Of a stretch of 64,000 bases of DNA, positions 2,475 through 50,083 are shown one piece after another; the first letter of the stretch is position 1; every line of letters begins with the position of its first letter. The DNA is taken from assembly GCA_045401115.1 (NCBI GenBank), contig CP174359.1:355247-419246 (forward strand), in the 5' to 3' direction. Below the pieces are notes generated by a model. It had not been told where the DNA came from, ran no database searches, and worked only from the letters and a program-made list of their open reading frames with translations. The stretch comes from Candidatus Phycocordibacter aenigmaticus (GTDB taxonomy: Bacteria > Patescibacteriota > Minisyncoccia > Phycocordibacterales > Phycocordibacteraceae). Made by a program: the position numbers and the translations under genes.

Positions 2475-4031
2475 ATGTCTGTGAATCGCTATCTCATCGG
2501 TATTATTCTTATTGGGGTTATTATTGCCGCTTTTGTACTGCGTTTTGCAGCTTTTGACCACCCACTTTCTATGCACGCGGCAGAAGGATTTCGTGATTTA
2601 TTCGTTGCAAAACACGCGCTTATATATAATGAGTGGCCACTCAGTGGCCACCACAACGGCCTTTCTACTGTCGATAATAGTCCTCTGTATTATTATTTAA
2701 TTATTGGTTTCGCGCTGTTCACGCAATCTTTTTTTGGCGTGAGTGTGCTTTTTATCATATTTCAAACGGTTTTCGTAGCGCTCGTGTTCTTAATTACTCG
2801 GGCGTTATTCAATTCTATTGCTGGTCTTGTTGCTGCTTTTTTTCTTGCATTTTCACCACATTATATAATAACGGTTACGAGCGATTCCATTTGGCCTCCT
2901 TACTTTGCGGCAACATTTGTTGTTGTTTCGCTGTGGTTGTTATGGCGAGGAGATAAACAGACACATAGAGCACTTATTATAGCGAGTCCAATAGCTATGC
3001 TTATGGCAGTTGCGATACATCAAGCAACGCTGGCGCTTGCTATGCCGTATGCCGCCCTTGGATTATATGTGGCGTATAGAAATAGGTTTTTACTTAAACA
3101 CTACCTTATTGCCGGGGGTATGTTCCTGTTGTGTGCTGGTGTCTTGTTTTTACCTTCACTCCTTACACATCAAGGTGCATTGCAATGGGGGACTCGTATT
3201 TCAGATCACACCGTAATTCCAGTTTTTGATGCATTCCACTTAGCGTTCTCTCAAATACTGTATACGTTCGGATTATCCGGTATTACTTCTACTGCAGCGG
3301 CCGCAGTTATTATTTCTTTTATTACACTCAGTACGTGGTTTATCTATTCTTCTAAAGTACTGAGAAAAGAAAAGGTTTTTTATGGATTAGGAATACTGTT
3401 TCTTGTCACTCAAATATGCATTATTGTATTTTTTGACCCAGAAGGTTTTTTACGGCATATGGAACCGGCGCTTTGGATATTGACTGTGTTGCTCGGCGTT
3501 ATTATTACTGCACCTTTTATCAAACAAAACCATCTGATGATGGGTGTGTCTCTTATTGTTTGTTTGGTGACGCTACATGCCATGGTAACTGATGAGCGAA
3601 TGTTTAGGGTATATCCGAACATTGGAACCTTTGAATATCCTCACTATCAACTTATGGATCGCGCGGTTGATGCGTTAGTTGAAGATATACGTTACATAAA
3701 AGAAGAGCATCAGTATACTGATTATACGTTTTTCAATATCCACGCGCTCAGTAAGACGGGGAGTGTTGTTTCGCCACTCGTATTTTGGTTCCCATTAGAA
3801 GAGCGATTAGACGCTCGGCTTGAAAAATCACCGAATACAGTCACTGGTAATTTTTGGGCGAAACATGTTGATGATTATTTATTCTACGCTTGTTTTAAGC
3901 AAAAAAATAATTATAGTGACGAGCAATGTTTGAGTGATTTTTCAAAGCAACACACTCATCATAATATAGAAAAACAGGTGTTTTACGATGATGTATTGAG
4001 TATCTATCGGTCATCACGGCTGTCTCCGTAG
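2475..4031 (+). CDS. Polytopic GT-C-type membrane glycosyltransferase (ArnT/PMT-like topology) with C-terminal soluble domain
   Basis: About 10 or more TM helices then a ~120 aa hydrophilic tail; context beside GT2 and deacetylase; start at the Met at 2475. Confidence 0.5.
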   Translation: MSVNRYLIGIILIGVIIAAFVLRFAAFDHPLSMHAAEGFRDLFVAKHALIYNEWPLSGHHNGLSTVDNSPLYYYLIIGFALFTQSFFGVSVLFIIFQTVFVALVFLITRALFNSIAGLVAAFFLAFSPHYIITVTSDSIWPPYFAATFVVVSLWLLWRGDKQTHRALIIASPIAMLMAVAIHQATLALAMPYAALGLYVAYRNRFLLKHYLIAGGMFLLCAGVLFLPSLLTHQGALQWGTRISDHTVIPVFDAFHLAFSQILYTFGLSGITSTAAAAVIISFITLSTWFIYSSKVLRKEKVFYGLGILFLVTQICIIVFFDPEGFLRHMEPALWILTVLLGVIITAPFIKQNHLMMGVSLIVCLVTLHAMVTDERMFRVYPNIGTFEYPHYQLMDRAVDALVEDIRYIKEEHQYTDYTFFNIHALSKTGSVVSPLVFWFPLEERLDARLEKSPNTVTGNFWAKHVDDYLFYACFKQKNNYSDEQCLSDFSKQHTHHNIEKQVFYDDVLSIYRSSRLSP

Positions 4032-26550: not shown

Positions 26551-26736
26551 GCAGATGTCTAAGAAAATGCGAAAGCGTTTGATTAGAAAAAGCTGCGCAA
26601 GGAGAGAGAATTCGAACGGGAAGGGGGTCGGGGAAACGGGAGTTTCCCCGTGGCGGAATGAGGCGAAGCCGGACATAAAACCGAGGGGTTTTATGAGCGC
26701 AGCGAAGCGAGCAGTGAGATTCCTGTCTCCTCCGCA
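26551..26736 (+). mobile_element. tRNA-flanking structured element A, ending in a direct repeat of the tRNA-Ser 3' end (att-like)
   Basis: 18/19-nt copy of the tRNA 3' end at 26716-26736; GNRA hairpin 26563-26578; hairpins 26629-26650 and 26674-26695. Confidence 0.5.
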
Positions 26737-35850: not shown

Positions 35851-35883
35851 AAACAACCCGCTTACATGGCGGGTTGTTTTTAT
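35851..35883 (+). terminator. Rho-independent terminator
   Basis: AAACAACCCGC-TTACATG-GCGGGTTGTTTTT. Confidence 0.7.
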
Positions 35884-35884
35884 T

Positions 35885-36151
35885 GATGTCCGCGCTAGAA
35901 CGCTTCGCTATCTCACTGCTCCCCAGCACCAGTTTGAGACAAAATGAAAATGGTTCGAAAATCTTTGTATGGAAATGAAACGTATCATACCTACTCACGT
36001 CCGTTCTCAAACTGGAGCTGGGTGTGCTCATAGAACCCTCGGTTCTATGTCGGCCAAAGGCCTAACTCCTCCACGGGAAAACAACGTGTTTTCCCGACCC
36101 TTTTCCAGTTCGATTCCTAGCAAGGGCACGGAATATGCTTCGCATTTTTAT
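35885..36151 (-). mobile_element. tRNA-Arg-flanking structured element E (related to element A), with an inverted copy of the tRNA 3' end
   Basis: 21-bp inverted repeat 36108-36129 / 36154-36175 involving the tRNA 3' end; hairpins 36029-36049 and 36074-36096 homologous to those of element A. Confidence 0.45.
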
Positions 36152-36227
36152 TGGTGCCCTTGCTAGGAATCGAACCTAGATCTAGAACTTAGGAGGTTCT
36201 TGTTCTATCCATTGAACTACAAGGGCA
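36152..36227 (-). tRNA. tRNA-Arg (anticodon CCT), CCA encoded
   Basis: Reverse complement gives TGCCCTT acceptor, anticodon loop CTCCTAA, GGTTCGATTCC T-arm, ...GGGCACCA. Confidence 0.85.
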
Positions 36228-36325
36228 TAGTGCTTCACGATAATGCGCGTCTTTTGCAAGCAAGAAGTGAATAGAAGTCTTGCTTATATTCACGCCGACG
36301 CGCCGCAAAAGTGGAAGCGCATTAT

Positions 36326-36598
36326 CTTACCACGCGCCCGCGTATGAAAAGACACGCAGTGCTTTCATACAAGAGCCAAAGGTTTGTGGTATTCCCACTG
36401 GCTCATGAAATACACGCAGTGATTTCATACAAGGGTGAGTAAAGGAGCTCGCTTACATTTTTGTTGAGGCGATGGAAAAAGTAAAGCGTGTTGCCTTACC
36501 ACGCGCCCGCGTATGAAAAGACACGCAGTGCTTTCATACAAGAGCCAAAGGTTTGTGGTATTCCCACTGGCTCATGAAATACACGCAGTGATTTCATA
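36326..36598. repeat. Two ~104-bp perfect direct repeats (36326-36429 and 36495-36598, period 169 bp), each holding two palindromes with a conserved ACACGCAGTG centre
   Basis: Direct comparison; TATGAAA...TTTCATA and CATGAAAT...ATTTCATA sub-palindromes. Confidence 0.8.
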
Positions 36599-36673
36599 TA
36601 AGGCATCGGACGTATCAAGCCGCACGGGGGTAAATACCCCCTAAACGGCTCTCTATGTTGTACACTGTTTTAT

Positions 36674-37012
36674 ATGAATCAGCAAAAGCAAAAAAAAGAA
36701 CCAGGACCTTCTTTAGATGAAGTATATAAGCTTGCTAAGGAAAATAATCGCATGCTCAAAGCCATGCGTCGGGATGCTTTCATTGGTGCTATCTTAAAAT
36801 TTGTGTTCTGGATTGCGATACTTTTTGTTATTCCTTATATTTTATATACGGTGTATCTGCAACCTCATTTAGTCAATCTTCAAAATACATATAATCAGTT
36901 TAATCAAAAAGTAGAAGCAATTGACGGCGCCTCACAAGAACTTCAGCAAGTGCGTGAAAGCCTCCCTGAAGGCTTTAACTCCTTTCTTGAGCAGTTTGGT
37001 ATTGGTGGCTAG
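36674..37012 (+). CDS. Hypothetical membrane protein
   Basis: Single TM, coiled-coil C-terminus. Confidence 0.4.
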   Translation: MNQQKQKKEPGPSLDEVYKLAKENNRMLKAMRRDAFIGAILKFVFWIAILFVIPYILYTVYLQPHLVNLQNTYNQFNQKVEAIDGASQELQQVRESLPEGFNSFLEQFGIGG

Positions 37013-37188
37013 AAAGATGGATTTTTGAGTGGGTTTTGATAGAATGGGGGACATTGCTAAGATTGAATGGTCTTGGTGATTGCCCTGCCGAGGGAAGATG
37101 TACTTCGTGTTATCTTGCCTCGGATGCAGTAAAGTTCCTCTCGAGGTAAAGCTTCTTACGGTCGCTTTGCCTCGGCGTCGAGCTGAGA

Positions 37189-37284
37189 GAATACGCTTCC
37201 TTTTTTCCGGCACGTCAACAAAAATGTAAGCGAGCTTCCATTTTTGTCTTGCTTGGAAAAATCGCGTATTCTCGTTAACCTCTT
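37189..37284 (+). promoter_or_regulatory. Conserved upstream stem-loop/promoter region of tRNA-Phe (homologous region lies upstream of tRNA-Arg)
   Basis: 10-bp inverted repeat GAGAATACGC...GCGTATTCTC; shared CTTGCTTG-AAAA-CGCG-ATT-TCGT block with 36229-36330 (tRNA-Arg). Confidence 0.45.
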
Positions 37285-37358
37285 GCCGAGGTAGCTCAGG
37301 TGGTTAGAGCACTGGTCTGAAGAACCAGGTGTCGGCGGTTCGAGTCCGCCCCTCGGCA
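37285..37358 (+). tRNA. tRNA-Phe (anticodon GAA)
   Basis: GCCGAGGTAGCTCAGGTGGTTAGAGC..., anticodon loop CTGAAGA, GGTTCGAGTCCGCC T-arm. Confidence 0.9.
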
Positions 37359-37561
37359 CAAAAACAATGAAGCCCGATACGAGAGTATCGGGCGATTTGT
37401 TTTGTAGCTACGAGGGCGGACTCGAAAGACGGAGCCGTGGGTCCCCATTGTGCTGAGTTTCAGGCACAATGGGGCGGCGAGTCCGGGCAGGAGGTTGTTA
37501 TGAGTTTTTCTATCGAGAGATAGGTAAAAACGAATTACGAACCTGACGCCGAGTCCGCCCC
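37359..37561 (+). mobile_element. tRNA-Phe-flanking structured element B, ending in a 12-nt repeat of the tRNA T-loop/T-stem (CGAGTCCGCCCC)
   Basis: GNRA hairpin 37373-37392; hairpin 37443-37476; shared 16-mer CGAGTCCGGGCAGGAG 37478-37493; junction GACGCCGAGTCC 37545-37556. Confidence 0.45.
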
Positions 37562-37589
37562 ATAACTTAGACTGGTTTATACTATACAT

Positions 37590-38096
37590 ATGGAGAAAAA
37601 AGTTTCCGTGAGTTTGGTAGACCAGCCAAACTATTCCTATACGCTTACTGAGCCGGTAGGGAAGAATTTTGACCCTGAATTTACGCCACACCTTACCCCC
37701 AAAGAGATGCTTGAGTTGGGCGTATTTTGTGGTCAATATATGCGCGACGGTGCCAAGGAATTTCCTGACTCATGGTTTACAAAAGCAAAGTTTACTAAAG
37801 GAGACAAAGCGGATTGCTCACTCAACTATTTTAAGGTGAATGCAAGCCAACCGCTTAGCGCATGGCAGGAAAAAGGATGGATACATCCAGACGATCCACG
37901 TGGGTGGTTTCAGTGGTACTGTCGGTATTACATGGGAAGGCGTCATGAGGATGATGAACGACAAATAAAGCGATGGAAGGCGTTTAGACGCCATGCAGCA
38001 CAAGTGCGAAACAACTGCGAGAGAGGAGATATGGGTTGTCGGTCCAAACAGCGCCAGGCCCTTCTGCACTGGGCATATGATAGTCGAAAATTATAA
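37590..38096 (+). CDS. Conserved hypothetical protein (Trp/Cys-rich; GWFQWYCRYYMGRR motif)
   Basis: 168-aa ORF with terminator; family not identified with confidence. Confidence 0.45.
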   Translation: MEKKVSVSLVDQPNYSYTLTEPVGKNFDPEFTPHLTPKEMLELGVFCGQYMRDGAKEFPDSWFTKAKFTKGDKADCSLNYFKVNASQPLSAWQEKGWIHPDDPRGWFQWYCRYYMGRRHEDDERQIKRWKAFRRHAAQVRNNCERGDMGCRSKQRQALLHWAYDSRKL

Positions 38097-38121
38097 AAAC
38101 CCGGTTTCGCCGGGTTTTTAT
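38096..38121. terminator. Bidirectional terminator between convergent genes
   Basis: AAAAACCCGG-TTTCG-CCGGGTTTTTA. Confidence 0.7.
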
Positions 38122-38122
38122 A

Positions 38123-38593
38123 TTAACTACCTTTCACTTTCACTTTCGTTTGCCTGTCTTTATTTAACTTCGGTAGTTTTATAGTGAGTAGGCCATGTTT
38201 TTCATTTGCTTCGGCACCATCAACATCAATTTCCGCCGGTAGGACGATGGTTCGTGAGAATCCACCCCAGAAAAGCTCACGGTACACATAGTCATCCTCA
38301 TCAATCTCTTTTTGTTCAACACGTTTTCCGCTAATAGTAACCATGTCGCGCGTAATCGATATATCAAGGTCGTCAGGACGTACGCCAGCTACCAATGCGC
38401 GAATAATGATATCACTGTCGTTTTGGTATACGTCGACAGTCAATTGTGCTTCTCCTGGTTCCTCTACTGGTTCAGGGTGAGTTTCGTCTTGTTGTTGATG
38501 TTGTATCGAAGGCTCAGCGGTTTCCTCAAAATCAAAGCTGTCGTCGTATTGCGTCCCAGTGAGTCTATCGAAGAATGAAGGTTTTTTAGGCAT
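38123..38593 (-). CDS. Small heat-shock protein (Hsp20/alpha-crystallin family)
   Basis: Alpha-crystallin domain ...GGFSRTIVLP...HGLLTIKLPK. Confidence 0.85.
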   Translation of the reverse strand: MPKKPSFFDRLTGTQYDDSFDFEETAEPSIQHQQQDETHPEPVEEPGEAQLTVDVYQNDSDIIIRALVAGVRPDDLDISITRDMVTISGKRVEQKEIDEDDYVYRELFWGGFSRTIVLPAEIDVDGAEANEKHGLLTIKLPKLNKDRQTKVKVKGS

Positions 38594-38615
38594 ACTAATT
38601 TTATTATGTAATAAT

Positions 38616-39341
38616 TTATTTTCTTAAGAATATTTTTTTCCACCAAGCAGGTCGGCTAATTGACTTTACTCTCTCAAGTATGAGTAACAGAAATACAATA
38701 CCTACCCATACCGCTGCAAAAATGGTCAAGAGCAAGTCTGCGCGTGTATTAATTATAGAGAAATTAAAAACAGCGTGCAACAGAATGGCGAGGATAACTC
38801 CCACAGTACCATACAGTATTTGTATACTTTTTCGTTTATAGAACGCAAAGGCAAGTGCGCCGGCAATTACTGCACTTGAAAGTACATGAATGAGTGTTGC
38901 GCCTAAGAATCGAAGATTGCCCGTTATTAATCCGTGCTCAAATTGACCTTGTGCAAGCGGAGTAAGAAGAAAGAGCATATTTTCAAGTGCCGCAAAACCA
39001 AGCGCAACGGTAATAAAATAAATAGGAACATCAATTGGTTCATCAACTGCACGATTACGCAGCGCCACGAGCCACGCTGCACCGAATTTAAGTAGTTCTT
39101 CCGCTGCGGCCCAGATAAGAAGGAGCGGAAACCCAAGTGCAAAATACGTCGCAGCAAATTTTTGTATGGGGAGTACCAAAAGAACACACAACATACCGGC
39201 TCCAAACGTTTTTAATAGAAGTAGTCGTGGTTCAGGTCGCTTAAGATCCTGTAAAAGCCAGAACCCAAGCCAGATAAGCGCAGGGATAAAGCCAATTAAA
39301 AAGGCGTACCCAAATGATTGGACCCAAGAAAAATCAAACAT
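38616..39341 (-). CDS. PrsW-family intramembrane protease (putative)
   Basis: Multi-TM with AAEELLKF (EExxK) and HAVFN motifs. Confidence 0.5.
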   Translation of the reverse strand: MFDFSWVQSFGYAFLIGFIPALIWLGFWLLQDLKRPEPRLLLLKTFGAGMLCVLLVLPIQKFAATYFALGFPLLLIWAAAEELLKFGAAWLVALRNRAVDEPIDVPIYFITVALGFAALENMLFLLTPLAQGQFEHGLITGNLRFLGATLIHVLSSAVIAGALAFAFYKRKSIQILYGTVGVILAILLHAVFNFSIINTRADLLLTIFAAVWVGIVFLLLILERVKSISRPAWWKKIFLRK

Positions 39342-39368
39342 GAGTATATTGTAGCAGTCTTGTTGAGA

Positions 39369-41513
39369 CTATTCTGTGTCTTTTACAGGCCAAGTTGAGA
39401 CCATAAGTATATCGGAATTTTTTTTCGGCAAGCTTTGCCAAATCTCCTCCGTGATAAACGGCATAAACGGGTGAAGCACTTTCAACGAAGTGGTGAGTAT
39501 TTCGTAGAGCGCGTGCTGACGTGATAGTTTCGCCGTTTGATCCTCTCCTTGGAGAATTGGTTTTGATTCTTCAAGTATCGTGTCGGCAATTTCATGCCAG
39601 ATATGGTGATATATTTTTTCAGATGCAAGGTGGAAACGGAATGCCTCTAAATCATGAGTAATATCGGTAAGAGTGTCATAGTGTTCACCAAGACGTTCTT
39701 TATCTTTTTCAGTGTGAACAATTTCTTTTTCAAAATTAATTTCTTCGGTTTCAGTTAAGATAAAACGGGTAATATTCCACAGTTTGTTTGCAAACTTTTT
39801 ATATGCATTCACTTTATTTGGATCAAGGTTAAAATCGGTTCCAGGAGTATTACCAACCACAAGACCCATGCGTAATGCATCAGTTCCGTATGTATCGGTG
39901 ATTTCAAGCGGGCTCACAACATTTCCTTTAGACTTAGACATTTTCTGACCTTTTGAGTCGCGTACAAGTCCATGAAGATACACATACTGAAATGGTGATT
40001 TTCCAGTCATGTATATACCGAGCATCATCATACGGGCTACCCAGAACTGTAAAATATCAGCACCGGTTTCCATGACTGTAGTAGGATAATATGTCTCGAA
40101 ATCTTCACTTGTAGGGAAGTTGAGTGTTGCAAGCGGCCATTGACCTGAAGAGAACCATGTGTCAAACGTATCGGTATCTGCAACCATTTCTCCGTTACAT
40201 TTCTCGCATACGGTAACCGTGTCTTCAATATCTACTACTGCATGATCGCAACTGGTGCAGATTTTTGCAGGGATAGGGATTCCCCAAACAATTTGTCTAG
40301 AAATATTCCAGTCACGAATATTTGAAAGCCAATGGCGTAGTGTTTTTTCGTGCTGTTCAGTGAGCACTACTGTTTCTTTTGTATCAAGGGCTTCAAGCGC
40401 TTTTTTTGCAAGTGGCTCCATCTTAATGAACCATTGGTCTCGCACCTGCGGTTCAATTTCACGGTTGCATTTATAGCACACAGGTACGGTATGTGTGTAT
40501 GCCTCATCAATTTTTACTAAAAGACCTTTTTCTTTTAGTTTCTCTACAATTTTTTCTCTTGCAGTGGTAATAGGCATTCCAGAAAATTCTTCGGCAATAG
40601 GGAGAAGTTTTCCTTGCCAGTCAATAATTTGCTCCATATCGAGGTCATGGCGCTGTGCAATTTCAAAGTCAATTTCTGAATGCCAAGGAGTGATAGTCAT
40701 CGCGCCAGTCCCCATTTCAGGGTCGCCAGCTTCGTCTTTAATAACGGTCGCAGTAATTGGGCCGTTAATCCACTCAAGATCTATAGTTTGTCCGTGTTCA
40801 TATTCTGCGTAACGTTCATCATCAGGATGTACTACTACATATTTATCACCAAACTTTGTCTCTGGTCGAGCGGTACCAATAACAAATGGTCCGTATTGGA
40901 AGTAGTAAAAAGTATCAACACGTTCTTCATGACTAGTTTCAAGGTTTGAAAGTGATGTTTGATGTTTTGGGCACCAGTTTACCGTTCGTTTTCCACGGTA
41001 GAGTAATTCATCATCGCTGAGTTTTTTAAATGTGTTGTACACCAGACGTACCACCCGTTCATCAAGAGTAAATAGATTGCGTGACCAGTCACATGAGGCG
41101 CCAAGTTGTCGTACCTGGTTCTCCATAAACGATTTATTAAAAAGTGTAAAATCTAGGATTTCTTTATAGAGATCTTCACGATCCATACCAAAGCGTGTAC
41201 GCCCTTCTTTTTGGAGTTTTTTCTCGTATACGACTTGTGTTTCAAAACCTGCATGGTCGGCTCCAGGTAACCATAATGCTTGTTTACCTTGCATGCGCGC
41301 AAGGCGAATCATGATGTCTTGGAGTGTAACGAAAAGCGCATGACCTGCGTGTAGACTCCCATTTGCGTTTGGTGGAGGCATGACAATGGTATACGGCTCA
41401 GACCGCTCTCCGGGGAGATTATCGGGGTTAAAGTAACCGCTCTCTTCCCAAAGTTTGTAGATTGCCTCCTCGGTATTTTGTGGGTCGTATGGTTTTAAAA
41501 ACTTATCGTGCAT
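39369..41513 (-). CDS. valS: Valyl-tRNA synthetase (compact, lacks C-terminal coiled coil)
   Basis: PPPNANGSLHAGHA (HIGH region), KMSKSKGNV (KMSKS); 714 aa. Confidence 0.85.
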   Translation of the reverse strand: MHDKFLKPYDPQNTEEAIYKLWEESGYFNPDNLPGERSEPYTIVMPPPNANGSLHAGHALFVTLQDIMIRLARMQGKQALWLPGADHAGFETQVVYEKKLQKEGRTRFGMDREDLYKEILDFTLFNKSFMENQVRQLGASCDWSRNLFTLDERVVRLVYNTFKKLSDDELLYRGKRTVNWCPKHQTSLSNLETSHEERVDTFYYFQYGPFVIGTARPETKFGDKYVVVHPDDERYAEYEHGQTIDLEWINGPITATVIKDEAGDPEMGTGAMTITPWHSEIDFEIAQRHDLDMEQIIDWQGKLLPIAEEFSGMPITTAREKIVEKLKEKGLLVKIDEAYTHTVPVCYKCNREIEPQVRDQWFIKMEPLAKKALEALDTKETVVLTEQHEKTLRHWLSNIRDWNISRQIVWGIPIPAKICTSCDHAVVDIEDTVTVCEKCNGEMVADTDTFDTWFSSGQWPLATLNFPTSEDFETYYPTTVMETGADILQFWVARMMMLGIYMTGKSPFQYVYLHGLVRDSKGQKMSKSKGNVVSPLEITDTYGTDALRMGLVVGNTPGTDFNLDPNKVNAYKKFANKLWNITRFILTETEEINFEKEIVHTEKDKERLGEHYDTLTDITHDLEAFRFHLASEKIYHHIWHEIADTILEESKPILQGEDQTAKLSRQHALYEILTTSLKVLHPFMPFITEEIWQSLPKKNSDILMVSTWPVKDTE

Positions 41514-41595
41514 ATCGCGTAATTATAAAATTCATAATACCACTTTTGCCTTTATTTGCACCGTTATACAGAGGTGGAATGCTTTACAATCAATA

Positions 41596-41629
41596 ATATA
41601 AACGGCTCACCCAGGTGAGCCGTTTATAT
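41596..41629. repeat. AAACGGCTCAC palindromic hairpin (family copy 3) in a divergent intergenic region
   Basis: ATATAAACGGCTCAC-CCAG-GTGAGCCGTTTATAT. Confidence 0.7.
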
Positions 41630-41738
41630 CTATGGCATGTCCGTCCTTTAATGAGGGAAGCGACGAATAAAGTTCTATCACTGCCTAAGCTATTGCAATT
41701 ATAGCTATTATGTTGCATAATAAATATAGATAAAATAT

Positions 41739-42812
41739 ATGCTTTTTTCGCTTAAAGATTGGTTTGTTCCATGTCAACGGAACAACTATCAACCTCATTT
41801 ATTTCACACAATTACCGTTGTGGCGCTTTTTGCAACCATTATATTTTTCTTCGTAGCGGCTCAATTTCTTTCTTACGCATTGACTGATAATCAAGGGTTT
41901 TTAGCAGCGATAGTCTCTTCGGTACTTGTTGACCTGACAAACGCTGATCGTATTGACGAGGGACTTCACGGTCTTTCGGTAAATGAAAAATTGACCCATG
42001 CCGCAGCATTGAAGGCACAGCATATGGCGCAGAATGGATATTTTGCCCATGAGTCTCCCGAAGGATTTTCAGCATGGCATTGGTTAAATGAAGCGGCATA
42101 TGATTTTTCATATGCCGGTGAAAATCTCGCGGTATTTTATGGCAATTCCGAAGATGTGGCACGTGCGTGGATGAACTCTCCACAACATCGCGCAAATATT
42201 TTAAATACACAATTTACTGAAATTGGTATTGCTACTGCAGAAGGAGTATATCAAGGTCGTCCAACGACATTCGTAGTGCAGATGTTCGGTACTCCGCAGG
42301 CTGAACCTGTTGTGCCGGCAACAGTGGCGCAAGAACCTGTGCCAACAGTTTCAGAGCCTGTCGCTGTTGTTGCTGAGGTTGAAAAGGACTCAGTGGTTGA
42401 TAATGAGGCGTTTGCAATGGTGCGCGCAGAAAATAGTGTGCCGACGCCTGAAGAGGTACTTGAAAACGTAGCAGTGCTTCACCAAGAAGATAATTTTATT
42501 GCGCTTAAAAATGTAACTCCTGTAGCACCCACACAAACTAACGTAGAGCCTCAGACAAACTTCATAGAGCGGGTGGTTGCGTCACCAAAAACAACACTCG
42601 CGTACATCTATACAGTGCTCGCAGCACTCCTTAGTAGCGCGTTGGTACTTTCTGTTTTTATTGGTGCCAGTGTCCAAAGCCCGAAGAACGTGGTATCAGC
42701 ACTTGTCCTTTTGGCGATGCTTGGCGCGTTGCTCCATGTATCGCAGGTGAACACTGTGGTTGCCGACGCAGAGGAAACCAGGCGACAACATCTCCAAGAG
42801 GCGAGCTCGTAG
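41739..42812 (+). CDS. CAP/SCP/PR1-like domain protein with N- and C-terminal TM anchors
   Basis: GENLA...ARAWMNSPQHRANIL CAP signature. Confidence 0.7.
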   Translation: MLFSLKDWFVPCQRNNYQPHLFHTITVVALFATIIFFFVAAQFLSYALTDNQGFLAAIVSSVLVDLTNADRIDEGLHGLSVNEKLTHAAALKAQHMAQNGYFAHESPEGFSAWHWLNEAAYDFSYAGENLAVFYGNSEDVARAWMNSPQHRANILNTQFTEIGIATAEGVYQGRPTTFVVQMFGTPQAEPVVPATVAQEPVPTVSEPVAVVAEVEKDSVVDNEAFAMVRAENSVPTPEEVLENVAVLHQEDNFIALKNVTPVAPTQTNVEPQTNFIERVVASPKTTLAYIYTVLAALLSSALVLSVFIGASVQSPKNVVSALVLLAMLGALLHVSQVNTVVADAEETRRQHLQEASS

Positions 42813-42830
42813 GTGCGCGTAGCGCACTGT

Positions 42831-44003
42831 TTATTCAGCGAGTGATTGCGAACCTCGCGCGTTCAGTTCTTTTTCAGTATCTGCTTTGCCGGCGCTGTGG
42901 CGCAAGTATGCGGCGATACCTATCATAATTGCATTATCTCCGGTTAGTCCGCTTTCAGGATAATGAAGCGTTATGTTTGGATGGTGAGAAACCAGTTCCT
43001 CTAATCCTTCACGGATATGTGTATTTGCCGCTACGCCGCCTCCGACCACGAGTGTTTTGGGATGTTGTATTTCAATGGCGCGTTTTGTTTTGTGCACCAA
43101 CACATCACGCGCCGCGTCTTCAAATTCGCGAGCAATATTTTCTTTATCTTCTTGTGAAAGTTCTCCCATGTCACGCACTAAGTAGAGTACAGCCGTTTTC
43201 AGACCTGAAAACGATACATCGCAACTTTCTTCGTGTAACATCGGGCGGGGAAGTGTAATAGGGTTTTCACCACCGCGCTCGCGTGCTTTTGTAGCATATG
43301 CAGATATTTCCGGCCCACCAGGATACTCAAGACCTAAGAGGCGCGCCACTTTATCAAACGCTTCACCTACGGCGTCATCGCGCGTTTGACCCACTAAATT
43401 ATATGCAAACCACTCTTTCATGGTAATAAGTTCAGTGTGTCCACCGGAAATAAGTAGTGCCAGTAATGGCAGTGCAGTGTCAGTAATATGATAGGTGTTT
43501 GGGGTGCGGAGGTCTTTTTTGAGTAGAGCAGAGGTAATGTGTCCTTCCATATGGTCAATGCCGGTCAGGGGAATATCCCAGGCAGCGCTGAGTGCTTGCG
43601 CAAAGGTAACACCGGTCCACAGTGCGGGTTCCAACCCAGGTCCGTTGGTTACAGCAATAAGGTCAATATCAGGTTTCTCGGTCGTTTCAAGGAAATCATT
43701 CACCGCTTTTTTAAATGATTCGTCACGGAGTGGTTCAAGCACATCGTCCGTTATTGTGTTGCAAGAGTCTTGTTTAAGTAGGCCTGCCTGGCGCAATGTT
43801 TCTGTGGTTAGGGGCACCAAATTTTGTTGGTGTTCACGTTTCGCAAGGGAAGGGTACACGCCGCCATACTCAGAGTGCTTAGATGCCTGAGAGTACAAGG
43901 AATCACCCAGAAGGGTATATTGGGATGATTCAATATTACCTGTCGCCTCAAGTACGGTTATTGCGGTCTCGTCACAACTGGTTTCAATGGCTAAAATTTT
44001 CAT
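42831..44003 (-). CDS. tsaD: tRNA N6-adenosine threonylcarbamoyltransferase TsaD (Kae1/Qri7 family)
   Basis: MKILAIETSCDETAI N-terminus, HMEGH metal-binding motif. Confidence 0.9.
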   Translation of the reverse strand: MKILAIETSCDETAITVLEATGNIESSQYTLLGDSLYSQASKHSEYGGVYPSLAKREHQQNLVPLTTETLRQAGLLKQDSCNTITDDVLEPLRDESFKKAVNDFLETTEKPDIDLIAVTNGPGLEPALWTGVTFAQALSAAWDIPLTGIDHMEGHITSALLKKDLRTPNTYHITDTALPLLALLISGGHTELITMKEWFAYNLVGQTRDDAVGEAFDKVARLLGLEYPGGPEISAYATKARERGGENPITLPRPMLHEESCDVSFSGLKTAVLYLVRDMGELSQEDKENIAREFEDAARDVLVHKTKRAIEIQHPKTLVVGGGVAANTHIREGLEELVSHHPNITLHYPESGLTGDNAIMIGIAAYLRHSAGKADTEKELNARGSQSLAE

Positions 44004-44010
44004 ATACAGA

Positions 44011-44213
44011 TGTTGTGGGCGATACAGGACTCGGCGTCAGGTTCCTAAGCTCATTCATCGCTCCGCTCTTCATTCACTAAGGACCTCCTGCCCGGCCTCG
44101 CCGACAAGCACTCGCTCTCGCTCGTCTTGTATACCGGCTCCGGCTTTCTCGTCCTGTGTCGCTGCTACAAACCTAAGTTGCATCATGCATGCGCATACTG
44201 CTCTAAGGTTTTG
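44011..44213 (-). mobile_element. tRNA-Val-flanking structured element D, ending (44011-44030) in a 20/21-nt direct repeat of the tRNA 3' end
   Basis: TGTGGGCGATACAGGACTCG present at 44011-44030 and 44212-44231; GACGCCGAGTCC junction and CCGGGCAGGAG motif on the minus strand. Confidence 0.5.
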
Positions 44214-49887: not shown

Positions 49888-50083
49888 CAAATGTCTAAGA
49901 AGACGCGAGAGCGTCTGATTAGCAACAATTGCGAGAAGGAGATGAGGCGAGAAAGACGGAGGCCGCGAAGCCGTGACGATAGTACACGTGGCCGAGTCCG
50001 GGCAGGAGCCACTTAGTATTTTGTGAGCAAAGCGAGACAAAATAGTTAGTGAGTTGACGCCGAGTCCCATCTCCTCCGCAAAT
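49888..50083 (+). mobile_element. tRNA-Ser(CGA)-flanking structured element C, ending in a 23-nt direct repeat of the tRNA 3' end
   Basis: CGAGTCCCATCTCCTCCGCAAAT at 49871-49893 and 50061-50083; GNRA hairpin 49901-49916; 16-mer CGAGTCCGGGCAGGAG 49993-50008. Confidence 0.5.

Follow-up and report, generated by a model that had tools for sequence, protein, structure and literature searches.

Two tRNA genes of Candidatus Phycocordibacter aenigmaticus that are transcribed away from each other have similar and highly structured DNA directly in front of them, and the locus raises the question of whether this DNA serves the expression of the tRNAs or has been inserted there. An initial annotation, made from the sequence, had left the choice between a conserved tRNA promoter or leader module and att-type debris. 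The stretch of DNA analysed here, called the window, has 64,000 nucleotides (contig CP174359.1, positions 355,247 to 419,246); it is bacterial chromosomal DNA of about 43% G+C and contains six tRNA genes.

By tRNA and Rfam searches, tRNA-Arg(CCT) was located at 36152-36226 on the minus strand and tRNA-Phe(GAA) at 37285-37359 on the plus strand, and these divergent genes have a small membrane ORF (36674-37012) in between. The gene neighbourhood includes MurJ, LepA, glutaredoxin, the small membrane ORF, HSP20, PrsW and a class I aminoacyl-tRNA synthetase. The small ORF is identical to an NCBI protein of "Patescibacteria group bacterium UBA2163", and its homologues (46-61% ORF identity) were used for gathering syntenic loci from relatives, which are designated below by L-numbers. 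Two observations on the tRNA genes in general may be recorded here: inserts with duplicated tRNA 3' ends are present behind five of the six window tRNAs, and whole tRNA cassettes are inverted in place in related genomes.

Two homologous palindromes upstream of tRNA genes

The sequence upstream of tRNA-Phe (37166-37283, plus strand) is homologous to that upstream of tRNA-Arg (36229-36345, minus strand) over about 117 nt without large gaps, and 83 of 121 aligned columns (69%) are identical. A shared region had been proposed in the initial annotation over about 40 nt; it is borne out and is much longer. An nhmmer search of the window on both strands, with the Phe copy as the sole query sequence, recovered the Arg copy (E=6.6e-11) as well as a second, partial Arg copy at about 36412-36503 (E=5.3e-8), and all other matches, beyond both Arg copies and the query's own reverse strand, had E>3. 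The L011 copy used as a query recovers both window copies (E=3.2e-12 and 5.3e-6). The degenerate 28-mer CTTGCTTGNAAAANNCGCGNATTNTCGT is confined to the two upstream regions in the window, and the 20-mer CAACAAAAATGTAAGCGAGC occurs at 37216-37235 (plus strand) and 36447-36466 (minus strand), with 0 occurrences expected from shuffled sequences in either case. This 20-mer had been recognised earlier with coordinates off by 1 and 4 nt. Upstream of tRNA-Arg there is a 169-nt tandem duplication (36279-36447 / 36448-36616, 87% identical) whose copy 2 contains the second site of the 20-mer, and the same duplication includes the partial second module copy (36436-36514, minus strand), which retains the ancestral core 20-mer.

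Repeat search and folding delimited a module palindrome with outer, middle and inner stems before tRNA-Phe at 37187-37273 on the plus strand. Its outer arm GAGAATACGC (37187-37196) pairs with GCGTATTCTC (37264-37273), its middle stem is composed of TTTTTTCC and GGAAAAA (37201-08 / 37255-61), and its inner stem of ACAAAAATGTAAGC and GCTTCCATTTTTGT (37218-31 / 37234-47). In the module copy before tRNA-Arg (36229-36345, minus strand), the outer arms 36239-36248 and 36317-36326 form 10 bp and the inner hairpin is at 36267-36293. The arm pairs of the two copies are distinguished by two compensatory double changes. An earlier description of these arms as compensatory variants was correct for 10 bp, but the eleventh pair claimed for the Arg copy is a mismatch and the stem is far more extensive than had been described. 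Over the whole of that annotation, coordinates were off by 1-4 nt.

The fold of the Phe module, including the small hairpin that precedes it, has a minimum free energy (MFE) of -54.2 kcal/mol (z=-6.7 versus mononucleotide shuffles), and the module aligns with its own reverse strand (E=2.3e-5), the whole unit being self-complementary. Within it lies the conserved core hairpin CAACAAAAATGTAAGCGAGCTTCCATTTTTGT (37216-37247, plus strand), which is found also before tRNAs in metagenomes and in one genome of Berkelbacteria. For eight long copies, RNAalifold gave a 12-bp central stem with compensatory changes in 7 of its 12 pairs. The outer stems vary between copies yet stay paired, and the Phe copy of L048, the Arg copy of L050 and both copies of L053 retain the same flanking motifs around internal hairpins that differ and are unrelated in sequence. 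Conservation of the module is one of structure rather than of sequence. In 13 of 16 copies the antisense strand has the more stable fold, which is suggestive, without being decisive, as to the relevant strand; the folded form that matters may be DNA or RNA.

No known family accounts for the module in Rfam, where the window yields only tRNAs at the gathering score. With E up to 10, the Phe module (37187-37273) gave only mir-787 noise (16.7 bits versus a gathering score of 57) and the region of the partial second Arg copy only IS009 noise (13.5 bits versus 117). The core was considered as an intrinsic terminator and this was rejected, its stem being A/T-rich with a conserved T.C mismatch and 37216-37247 not being called by the terminator scan. 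A T7/T3-like promoter reading of CCTCACTT, followed directly by G, was also discarded (the register is wrong and there is no sign of such a polymerase), as was a PBS-like role for inverted 3' copies, which do not include CCA. Sites of the dif/Xer, LexA, parS and CIRCE kinds were likewise set aside, no match to their consensus sequences being known.

Empty sites and displaced tRNA 5' ends

The orthologous loci of relatives provide sites that are free of the module. In the window, an ancestral tRNA-Phe promoter TTTTGATAGAAT of the TGnTAnAAT type is present at 37034-37045 (plus strand), about 240 nt from the tRNA as it now stands, and TTTG.TA.AAT is invariant across the window, L006, L009, L008 and L011. 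The tRNA-Phe gene starts 12 nt after the ancestral hexamer in L006 and 9 nt after it in L009, and MAFFT alignment of the orthologous loci gives a window insert of about 235 nt at tRNA-Phe that is absent in both. At tRNA-Arg, the ancestral promoter region CAGTGTACAACAT (36655-36667, minus strand), which this gene has in common with the divergent small ORF, shows no change between the window, L006 and L008. From this region to the tRNA start there are 9-27 nt in L006 and L008, and in the window about 420 nt have been inserted, according to MAFFT, between this region and 36227. The tRNA-Phe and tRNA-Arg orthologues in L006, L009, L003 and L049 have no module and stand directly behind an ordinary -10 box. 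Both window modules are insertions between a conserved ancestral promoter and the tRNA.

In the direction of the tRNA, the layout, which is the same for every copy, is ancestral promoter, X1, short loop, X', left motif, hairpin, right motif and intact tRNA. X1 is a copy of nt 1 to about 9-13 of the local tRNA, usually ending at the near-universal GTA, and X' is its inverted complement; the X1-loop-X' hairpin was predicted in all copies folded. The left motif is (T/G)GCGTTCGG and the right motif is CCTCAYTT, which is diverged in this window, and the hairpin between them is imperfect and variable in sequence and length. Modules are about 45-120 nt long and have no ORF, while the inserts overall are 45-420 nt long. 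The distance from X' to the tRNA is uniform (about 45 nt) at many independent tRNAs, and the core ends 11-12 nt before the tRNA in the short type and 40-52 nt before it in the long types. Units may be nested or in tandem, and 0 to 3 copies are found at one gene.

Each window module is preceded by a copy of tRNA nt 1-9/13 and then by the inverted complement of this copy. The oldest, decayed tRNA-Phe 5' copy, GCTAAGATTGAATGG versus GCCGAGGTAGCTCAG, is at 37056-37070 (plus strand), which in the alignment is the position of the tRNA start in L006 and L009. It matches at 9 of 15 positions, and the neighbouring ancestral promoter is perfectly kept. An older hairpin at 37087-37123 (plus strand), as read from the sequence, is made of a tRNA-Phe 5' copy GCCGAGGGAAGAT, a loop and the inverted complement ATCTTGCCTCGG. 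The X1-loop-X' hairpin at 37140-37175 (plus strand), with the tRNA-Phe 5' copy CTCGAGGTAAAGC and the inverted complement GCTTTGCCTCGG, has a 12-bp stem in the MFE fold, and homologous hairpins GCCGAGGTAAGC-n5-TTGCCTCGGC are present in L011, L008, L048 and L053. On the minus strand, sequence and fold gave a tRNA-Arg 5' copy GCTCTTGTATGAAAG, a loop and the inverted complement TTTTCATACGCGGGCGCG at 36333-36376 and a second tRNA-Arg 5'-copy hairpin at 36402-36434, and both recur in the duplicated unit at 36502-36545 and 36571-36603.

Such displaced ends are associated with the modules in general. Of 19 tRNAs with a module, 9 have a copy of tRNA nt 1-10 (at least 9 of 10 matching) within 250 nt upstream, as compared with 1 of 33 tRNAs in which no module was detected, and the sole exception among the 33 is a short L008 module that was missed by the profile. 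The inserts sit in the first 10 nt or so of tRNA genes, leaving the tRNA intact and the old 5' end displaced.

The left-end motif of the Phe module, GGCGTCGAG..., is at 37174-37186 (plus strand) and is a diverged form of the family (T/G)GCGTTCGGA, which stands directly behind X' in L016, L028, L036, L038, L045, L023, L034, L048, L050 and L053. It is part of a sequence that had been taken for the 3'-element junction in inverted form. This sequence, GCCTCGGCGTCGAG, was located at 37169-37182 instead of 37165-37180, and GACGCCGAGG is contained in its reverse complement, but the sequence is not a copy of the 3' junction. In the window there are three real junctions of 3' elements, and these have the sequence GACGCCGAGT, which the reverse complement of the motif matches at 9 of 10 positions, and the minus strand upstream of tRNA-Phe gave no alignment beyond a 9-mer with the three type-A 3' elements. 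The CCTCGGC in GCCTCGGCGTCGAG is X', the complement of the tRNA-Phe 5' acceptor strand, and is followed by the module motif GCGT(T)CG; X' together with the left motif is found again in L011, as TTGCCTCGGCGGCG and TTGTCTCGGCGGCA, and in L008, L048 and L053, as TTGCCTCGGC. The likeness of GCCTCGGCGTCGAG to the 3'-element junction is largely coincidental. The suggestion of att-type debris holds in spirit, a duplicated tRNA 5' end being found with each module, but not in the form of a 3'-element junction.

Distribution among tRNA genes and relation to promoters

The core hairpin, searched as AAANGTAAGCNAGCTTCCNTTTT, was found at 33 loci (about 25 distinct) in JGI metagenomes. It is 11-90 nt upstream of a tRNA on the same strand in 13 of the 25 distinct matches, versus a chance expectation of about 0.3% of positions, which is our own estimate from about 45 tRNAs per 0.8 Mb. 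These tRNAs are Val, Arg-TCT, Arg-GCG, Thr, Lys, Phe, Asp, Ile, Trp and an intron-containing Thr. One further match lies within 3'-element arrays after tRNA-Glu, and 11 of the 25 are not near tRNAs; at 18 loci with a core away from a tRNA, no other stable RNA was found downstream. Lack of enrichment before other tRNAs had been named in the initial annotation as the result that would speak against its proposal, and the proposal has withstood this check.

A core profile made from 17 cores covers 12 tRNA species (Phe, Arg-cct, Arg-tct, Arg-gcg, Val, Thr, Lys, Asp, Ile, Trp, Met and Gly), the profile search having added diverged copies before tRNA-Met (two tandem units) and tRNA-Gly. An exact-pattern scan of 185,579 species genomes gave one match only, in Berkelbacteria, and none in the source species; there the core lies 11 nt before tRNA-Arg(TCT) and is itself preceded by two copies of the 5' end of this tRNA. 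Near-identical cores are shared by at least five tRNAs of one Hain contig, namely Phe, Gly, Asp, Thr and Met, the last of these with two units. The tRNA-Gly of L023 and the tRNA-Ile of L044, which is on another contig of the same metagenome, have the 5' end GCGAGCGTAG in common and carry nearly the same variant.

Among the relatives, tRNA-Phe of L011 is preceded by two units in tandem, the insert of L008 is a version of 75 nt, and a short version is also present at Arg in L048. Modules are found at both Arg and Phe in L048 and L053 and at Arg in L050 and L051. The Logan contig L001 has the same Phe module as the window, which is independent assembly support. A window-wide profile search found no module at the other four window tRNAs, and the core profiles gave no match to the 3' elements on either strand. 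The inserts can stack in tandem and are scattered over many tRNAs, and closely related genomes differ in whether they have them. A search of the open-access full-text literature gave no description of such elements, and an earlier description is possible.

With regard to transcription, the proximal arm before tRNA-Phe has a -10-like TATTCT at 37267-37272 (plus strand), 12 nt before +1. At the same position, 11-13 nt from +1, the Arg copy (36240-36245), the two L011 copies and L008 have CATTAT, CATTAT, TATTAT and TATTAT, respectively, and the insert-free L006 and L009 have TAGAAT or TAAAAT 9-12 nt before +1. With a threshold of at least 9 of 12 matches, the promoter scan left the proximal arm site uncalled in both window copies; its calls were the ancestral promoter (37036-37063) and, on the minus strand, the distal Arg arm GATAAT with a -35 (36321-36350). 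The proximal hexamers of both window copies have no convincing -35 and no TGn extension, and the short and long metagenome subtypes have no -10-like hexamer at a usable distance. Judged from these motifs, the proximal arm of the window subtype may act as a second promoter. The module is not the organism's general tRNA promoter, because the four other window tRNAs do not have it. The initial proposal of a conserved tRNA promoter or leader module is correct in that the module is conserved and tied to tRNA 5' flanks, but not as a general promoter, in view of these four tRNAs and the empty orthologues.

It is conceivable, though we think it unlikely, that the modules are functional cis-elements, that is, a conserved promoter and/or 5' leader kept by selection and spread by duplication or gene conversion. 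The role of such an element might be to bind a protein specific to the lineage, to determine processing or to shield the tRNA from transcription nearby. Selection for a function is consistent with the spacing to the tRNA +1, which is fixed within the short and within the long types, and with the covariation that backs the hairpin, but the same gene may have 0 to 3 copies. The -10-like hexamer stands 11-13 nt from +1 in all five window-type copies, as in the promoters of the empty sites, and the distal Arg arm was called by the promoter scan together with its -35; against this, the short and long types have no usable -10, the old promoter is still present upstream, and the duplicated tRNA 5' end with its inverted copy has no obvious promoter role. 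While most tRNAs on one contig have the module, it is missing from four of the six window tRNAs, and the orthologous Phe and Arg genes of L006, L009, L003 and L049 have plain promoters and no module.

Origin and significance of the inserts

The explanation that we favour, with a confidence somewhat above even, is that the window modules belong to an undescribed family of ORF-less palindromic insertion elements of Patescibacteria, which target tRNA 5' ends and regenerate the 5' end. The modules would accordingly be non-autonomous selfish elements. Features of MITE-like elements are present: terminal inverted repeats (the 10-bp outer arms plus further pairing), a direct target duplication (tRNA nt 1 to about 9-13 upstream of the module), dispersed copies (two sites in the window and at least five on the Hain contig) and empty sites in relatives. 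An autonomous partner with the same ends and a transposase was found neither beside any copy nor in viral contigs. Pfam searches detected no mobility gene (recombinase, transposase or reverse transcriptase) in the neighbouring ORFs or the ORFs of the L011 island, and the ORFs around core matches away from tRNAs include no mobility candidate. The window neighbours (Grx, the small membrane ORF, an unknown 168-aa ORF, HSP20 and PrsW) were screened for an integrase and none was found. Neither an excised form nor a recent transposition was observed.

As a possible course of events, a unit would enter the tRNA gene at about position 9-10, bringing or regenerating the tRNA 5' end, and the displaced old end would decay. 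Transcription of the tRNA would still begin at the ancestral promoter, which has been retained, and run across the insert, and the structured leader would be trimmed off by RNase P. Transcription from the old promoter and removal of the leader by RNase P are suggested because the ancestral promoter has been kept while the adjacent 5' copy has decayed (9/15). Modules are probably carried in the tRNA 5' leader, and since RNase P would remove the leader, the insert would be harmless.

With regard to the insertion itself, the order A, spacer, A', core, A could be the product of one crossover, located at the 3' edge of A, between the chromosome and a small self-complementary element. This element would probably be folded and single-stranded and have the palindrome A-spacer-A' as its attachment site, and the recombinase would act in trans; snap-back synthesis and gene conversion are possible contributors. 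X and X' match the local tRNA at no fewer than 10 tRNA species. A simple cut-and-paste or fixed-att element falls short of explaining this match unless it is retargeted or templated by the target, and either many specialised lineages or templating from the target would be needed to fit X and X' to each local tRNA. Non-allelic gene conversion or local duplication could also have spread copies without true transposition.

A wider proposal, which we regard as tentative and rather doubtful, is that the 5' modules and the 3' inserts, both having the order A, spacer, A', core, A, form a new class of gene-less hairpin mobile elements that home to tRNA ends by means of a built-in copy of the target and its complement. 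Homing would be guided by nucleic-acid pairing or by a folded single-stranded site and would depend on an enzyme provided in trans, and such elements may also drive the inversion of tRNA cassettes.

The inserts could instead be deletion remnants, namely the attL and attR arms left by larger elements (prophages or integrative plasmids, for instance) that had tRNA genes as attachment sites and were then lost by genome streamlining, but we consider this quite unlikely. Direct repeats of tRNA ends flank the inserts, which is a hallmark of integrase insertion, and a crossover-type segment of the tRNA is duplicated as in att remnants; this segment is, however, the 5' end and not the usual anticodon, T-loop or 3' end. 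In the classification by Williams of 2002, tRNA-targeting integrases reportedly use the 5' end rarely. The inserts with duplicated 3' ends behind five of the six window tRNAs, as well as about 2.3 kb with ORFs behind a type-A left end in L011, agree with an origin from larger elements, yet there is no integrase in or near any copy, and both the core pattern and the type-A pattern had zero matches in 2.9 million viral contigs. Moreover, the halves of the module are complementary over its whole length, which is unexpected for two unrelated arms, and the unit size from X' to the tRNA is the same at many independent tRNAs. A local accident, meaning a one-off inverted duplication between neighbouring divergent tRNAs or a chance AT-rich promoter similarity, would agree with inverted copies about 950 nt apart around one small ORF but is extremely improbable and effectively excluded by the cross-genome matches, since the same module is found in other genera and at other tRNAs, the L011 copy matches both window copies at the E-values given above and the patterns are expected 0 times in shuffles.

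Comparison with known systems gives partial likenesses to the insertion elements proposed here. The nearest analogues of the proposed crossover, the integron attC site and the folded single-stranded attP of CTX phage, are, like the modules, imperfect palindromes in which structure and short motifs are conserved and the centre is variable, and the order A, spacer, A', core, A is the expected leftover of recombination with a folded hairpin site. This likeness is by anatomy only; the target here is the tRNA 5' end and not attI or dif, and no integron integrase IntI, attI or cassette array was seen in the window.

MITE-like repeats (ERIC/IRU, Correia, RPE, REP/BIME and the PATE of IS200/IS605) are also small, ORF-less, palindromic and multicopy with a short direct duplication, and co-transcription with neighbouring genes is counted as a further feature shared with the modules. 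In contrast to the modules, they use short generic targets (e.g., TA) and have no inverted copy of a 9-13 nt target. We know of no MITE-like repeat that is dedicated to tRNA 5' ends, and no parent IS with the same ends as the modules was found.

Integrase islands and prophages in tRNA genes resemble the modules in the duplication of a tRNA segment at the insert ends, in the restoration of the tRNA by element-borne sequence and in tandem accretion. They duplicate the 3' part of the tRNA, whereas the modules, 45-420 nt in length, have no integrase, are found at the 5' end, are fully self-complementary and have an inverted target copy beside the direct copy. Dictyostelium TRE5-A and yeast Ty3 likewise are selfish and find a safe haven immediately in front of tRNA genes, but they are eukaryotic protein-coding retroelements whose insertion, targeted through Pol III factors, takes place tens of bp before the gene and involves no duplication of the tRNA 5' end. 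An ordinary sigma-70-type tRNA promoter may be matched by the window subtype in a TAnnnT-like hexamer 12-13 nt before +1, as in the unoccupied relatives; unlike in such a promoter, this hexamer is without a convincing -35, was not called by the scan and is missing in other subtypes, and the true ancestral promoter is upstream. In sum, the modules are akin both to small non-autonomous insertion elements and to tRNA-targeted integration, and their unusual feature is the target-matched inverted copy.

Patescibacteria have very small and streamlined genomes, yet the tRNA genes described here have layered, gene-less and structured inserts at both ends. The inserts explain why short-read assemblies break at tRNA genes in these genomes, and with them as markers, strain-level evolution and the turnover of tRNA promoters can be followed. 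Direct and inverted copies that match the target are a hint of a mode of targeting that is possibly reprogrammable. If the elements are mobile, they would represent a new way for selfish DNA to persist, inside a transcription unit trimmed by RNase P and by rebuilding the piece of the gene that it displaces.

Inserts downstream of the tRNA genes

Downstream of five of the six tRNA genes in the window lies an insert of 180-275 nt that contains no ORF, and two sequence types have been distinguished: type A follows tRNA-Phe (37360-37561, plus strand), tRNA-Val (44016-44212, minus strand) and tRNA-Ser-CGA (49889-50083, plus strand), and type B follows tRNA-Ser-GGA (26553-26736, plus strand) and tRNA-Arg (35877-36151, minus strand). 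At its far end each insert repeats the last 12-22 nt of the tRNA in direct orientation, and it also carries an inverted copy of this 3' end on the tRNA-proximal side. The layout A, spacer, A', core, A, where A is a copy of the tRNA end and A' its inverted complement, is common to these inserts and the 5' modules, the palindromic hairpin inserts upstream of tRNA genes. Type A has the sequence GAAAGMCGGAG ... CCGGGCAGGAG ... TGACGCCGAG and was also found in loci from other genomes or metagenomes (L008, L040, where it is in tandem, L042 and L053). Type B is represented by GGTCGGGRAAAC..., CCGAGGGTTYTATGAG and GAGCAGTGAGA, and the differences between its tRNA-Ser-GGA and tRNA-Arg hairpins are compensatory.

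Within the type A elements of tRNA-Phe (at 37486-37520) and tRNA-Val (at 44060-44092, minus strand), AGGAGG is followed 6-7 nt on by a start codon and a mini-ORF of 7-8 codons (MSFSIER and VNEERSDE, respectively); the tRNA-Ser-CGA element has no counterpart of these.

Repeats around tRNA-Arg and assembly breaks

The 3' part of tRNA-Arg (36154-36175) has a perfect 22-nt inverted copy at 36108-36129, 24 nt past the gene, which could pair with the gene's own T arm and acceptor strand in a read-through transcript. Upstream of the gene lies a tandem duplication of 169 nt (36279-36447 and 36448-36616, 87% identical), each unit of which comprises half a module and two hairpins formed by a tRNA-Arg 5' copy with its inverted complement.

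Two Logan contigs assembled independently from short reads of this organism, L001 (about 36569-37486 of the window) and L002 (about 37527-44126), end inside these tRNA-flanking repeats, which therefore fragment assemblies. The sequence of the tRNA-Phe module is confirmed by L001.

The core motif and an interrupted tRNA-Thr-like gene in other contigs

The core motif AAAAGTAAGCAAGCTTCCTTTTT of the 5' module was also found at non-tRNA sites. In L021, L025, L032 and L037, contigs of 50-60% G+C that are probably non-Patescibacterial, it is flanked by CTCGCTCGA/GCTCGCTTACTCG, while further sites adjoin an L10 leader (L033, 363-400) and lie at a gene end (L022, 6961-7001), respectively.

A 5' module is also present upstream of a tRNA-Thr-like gene (L026, about 2990-3420, and L035, about 1000-1160, both minus strand) that was not called by ARAGORN. 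About 280 nt, which may be a group I-type intron, interrupt this gene after the anticodon loop; beyond them it continues with T arm and acceptor end as normal (this 3' part was checked in L026 only).

A putative promoter and tRNA orientation around the small ORF

The sequence TTGTACACT is conserved 7-8 nt upstream of the ATG of the small ORF between tRNA-Arg and tRNA-Phe (window 36650-36676; L006 9985-10003; L008 9905-9932), and the palindromic TGTACA within this region would yield -10-like hexamers on both strands. A leaderless mRNA for the small ORF and, in relatives, a bidirectional promoter common to it and tRNA-Arg are thereby suggested.

Among relatives (L003 9504-10410; L009 9658-10462; L011 9904-10708; L048 194-777; L053 2520-3286), tRNA-Arg and tRNA-Phe occupy the same position in either orientation relative to the conserved small ORF. 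Entire tRNA cassettes thus appear to flip in place.
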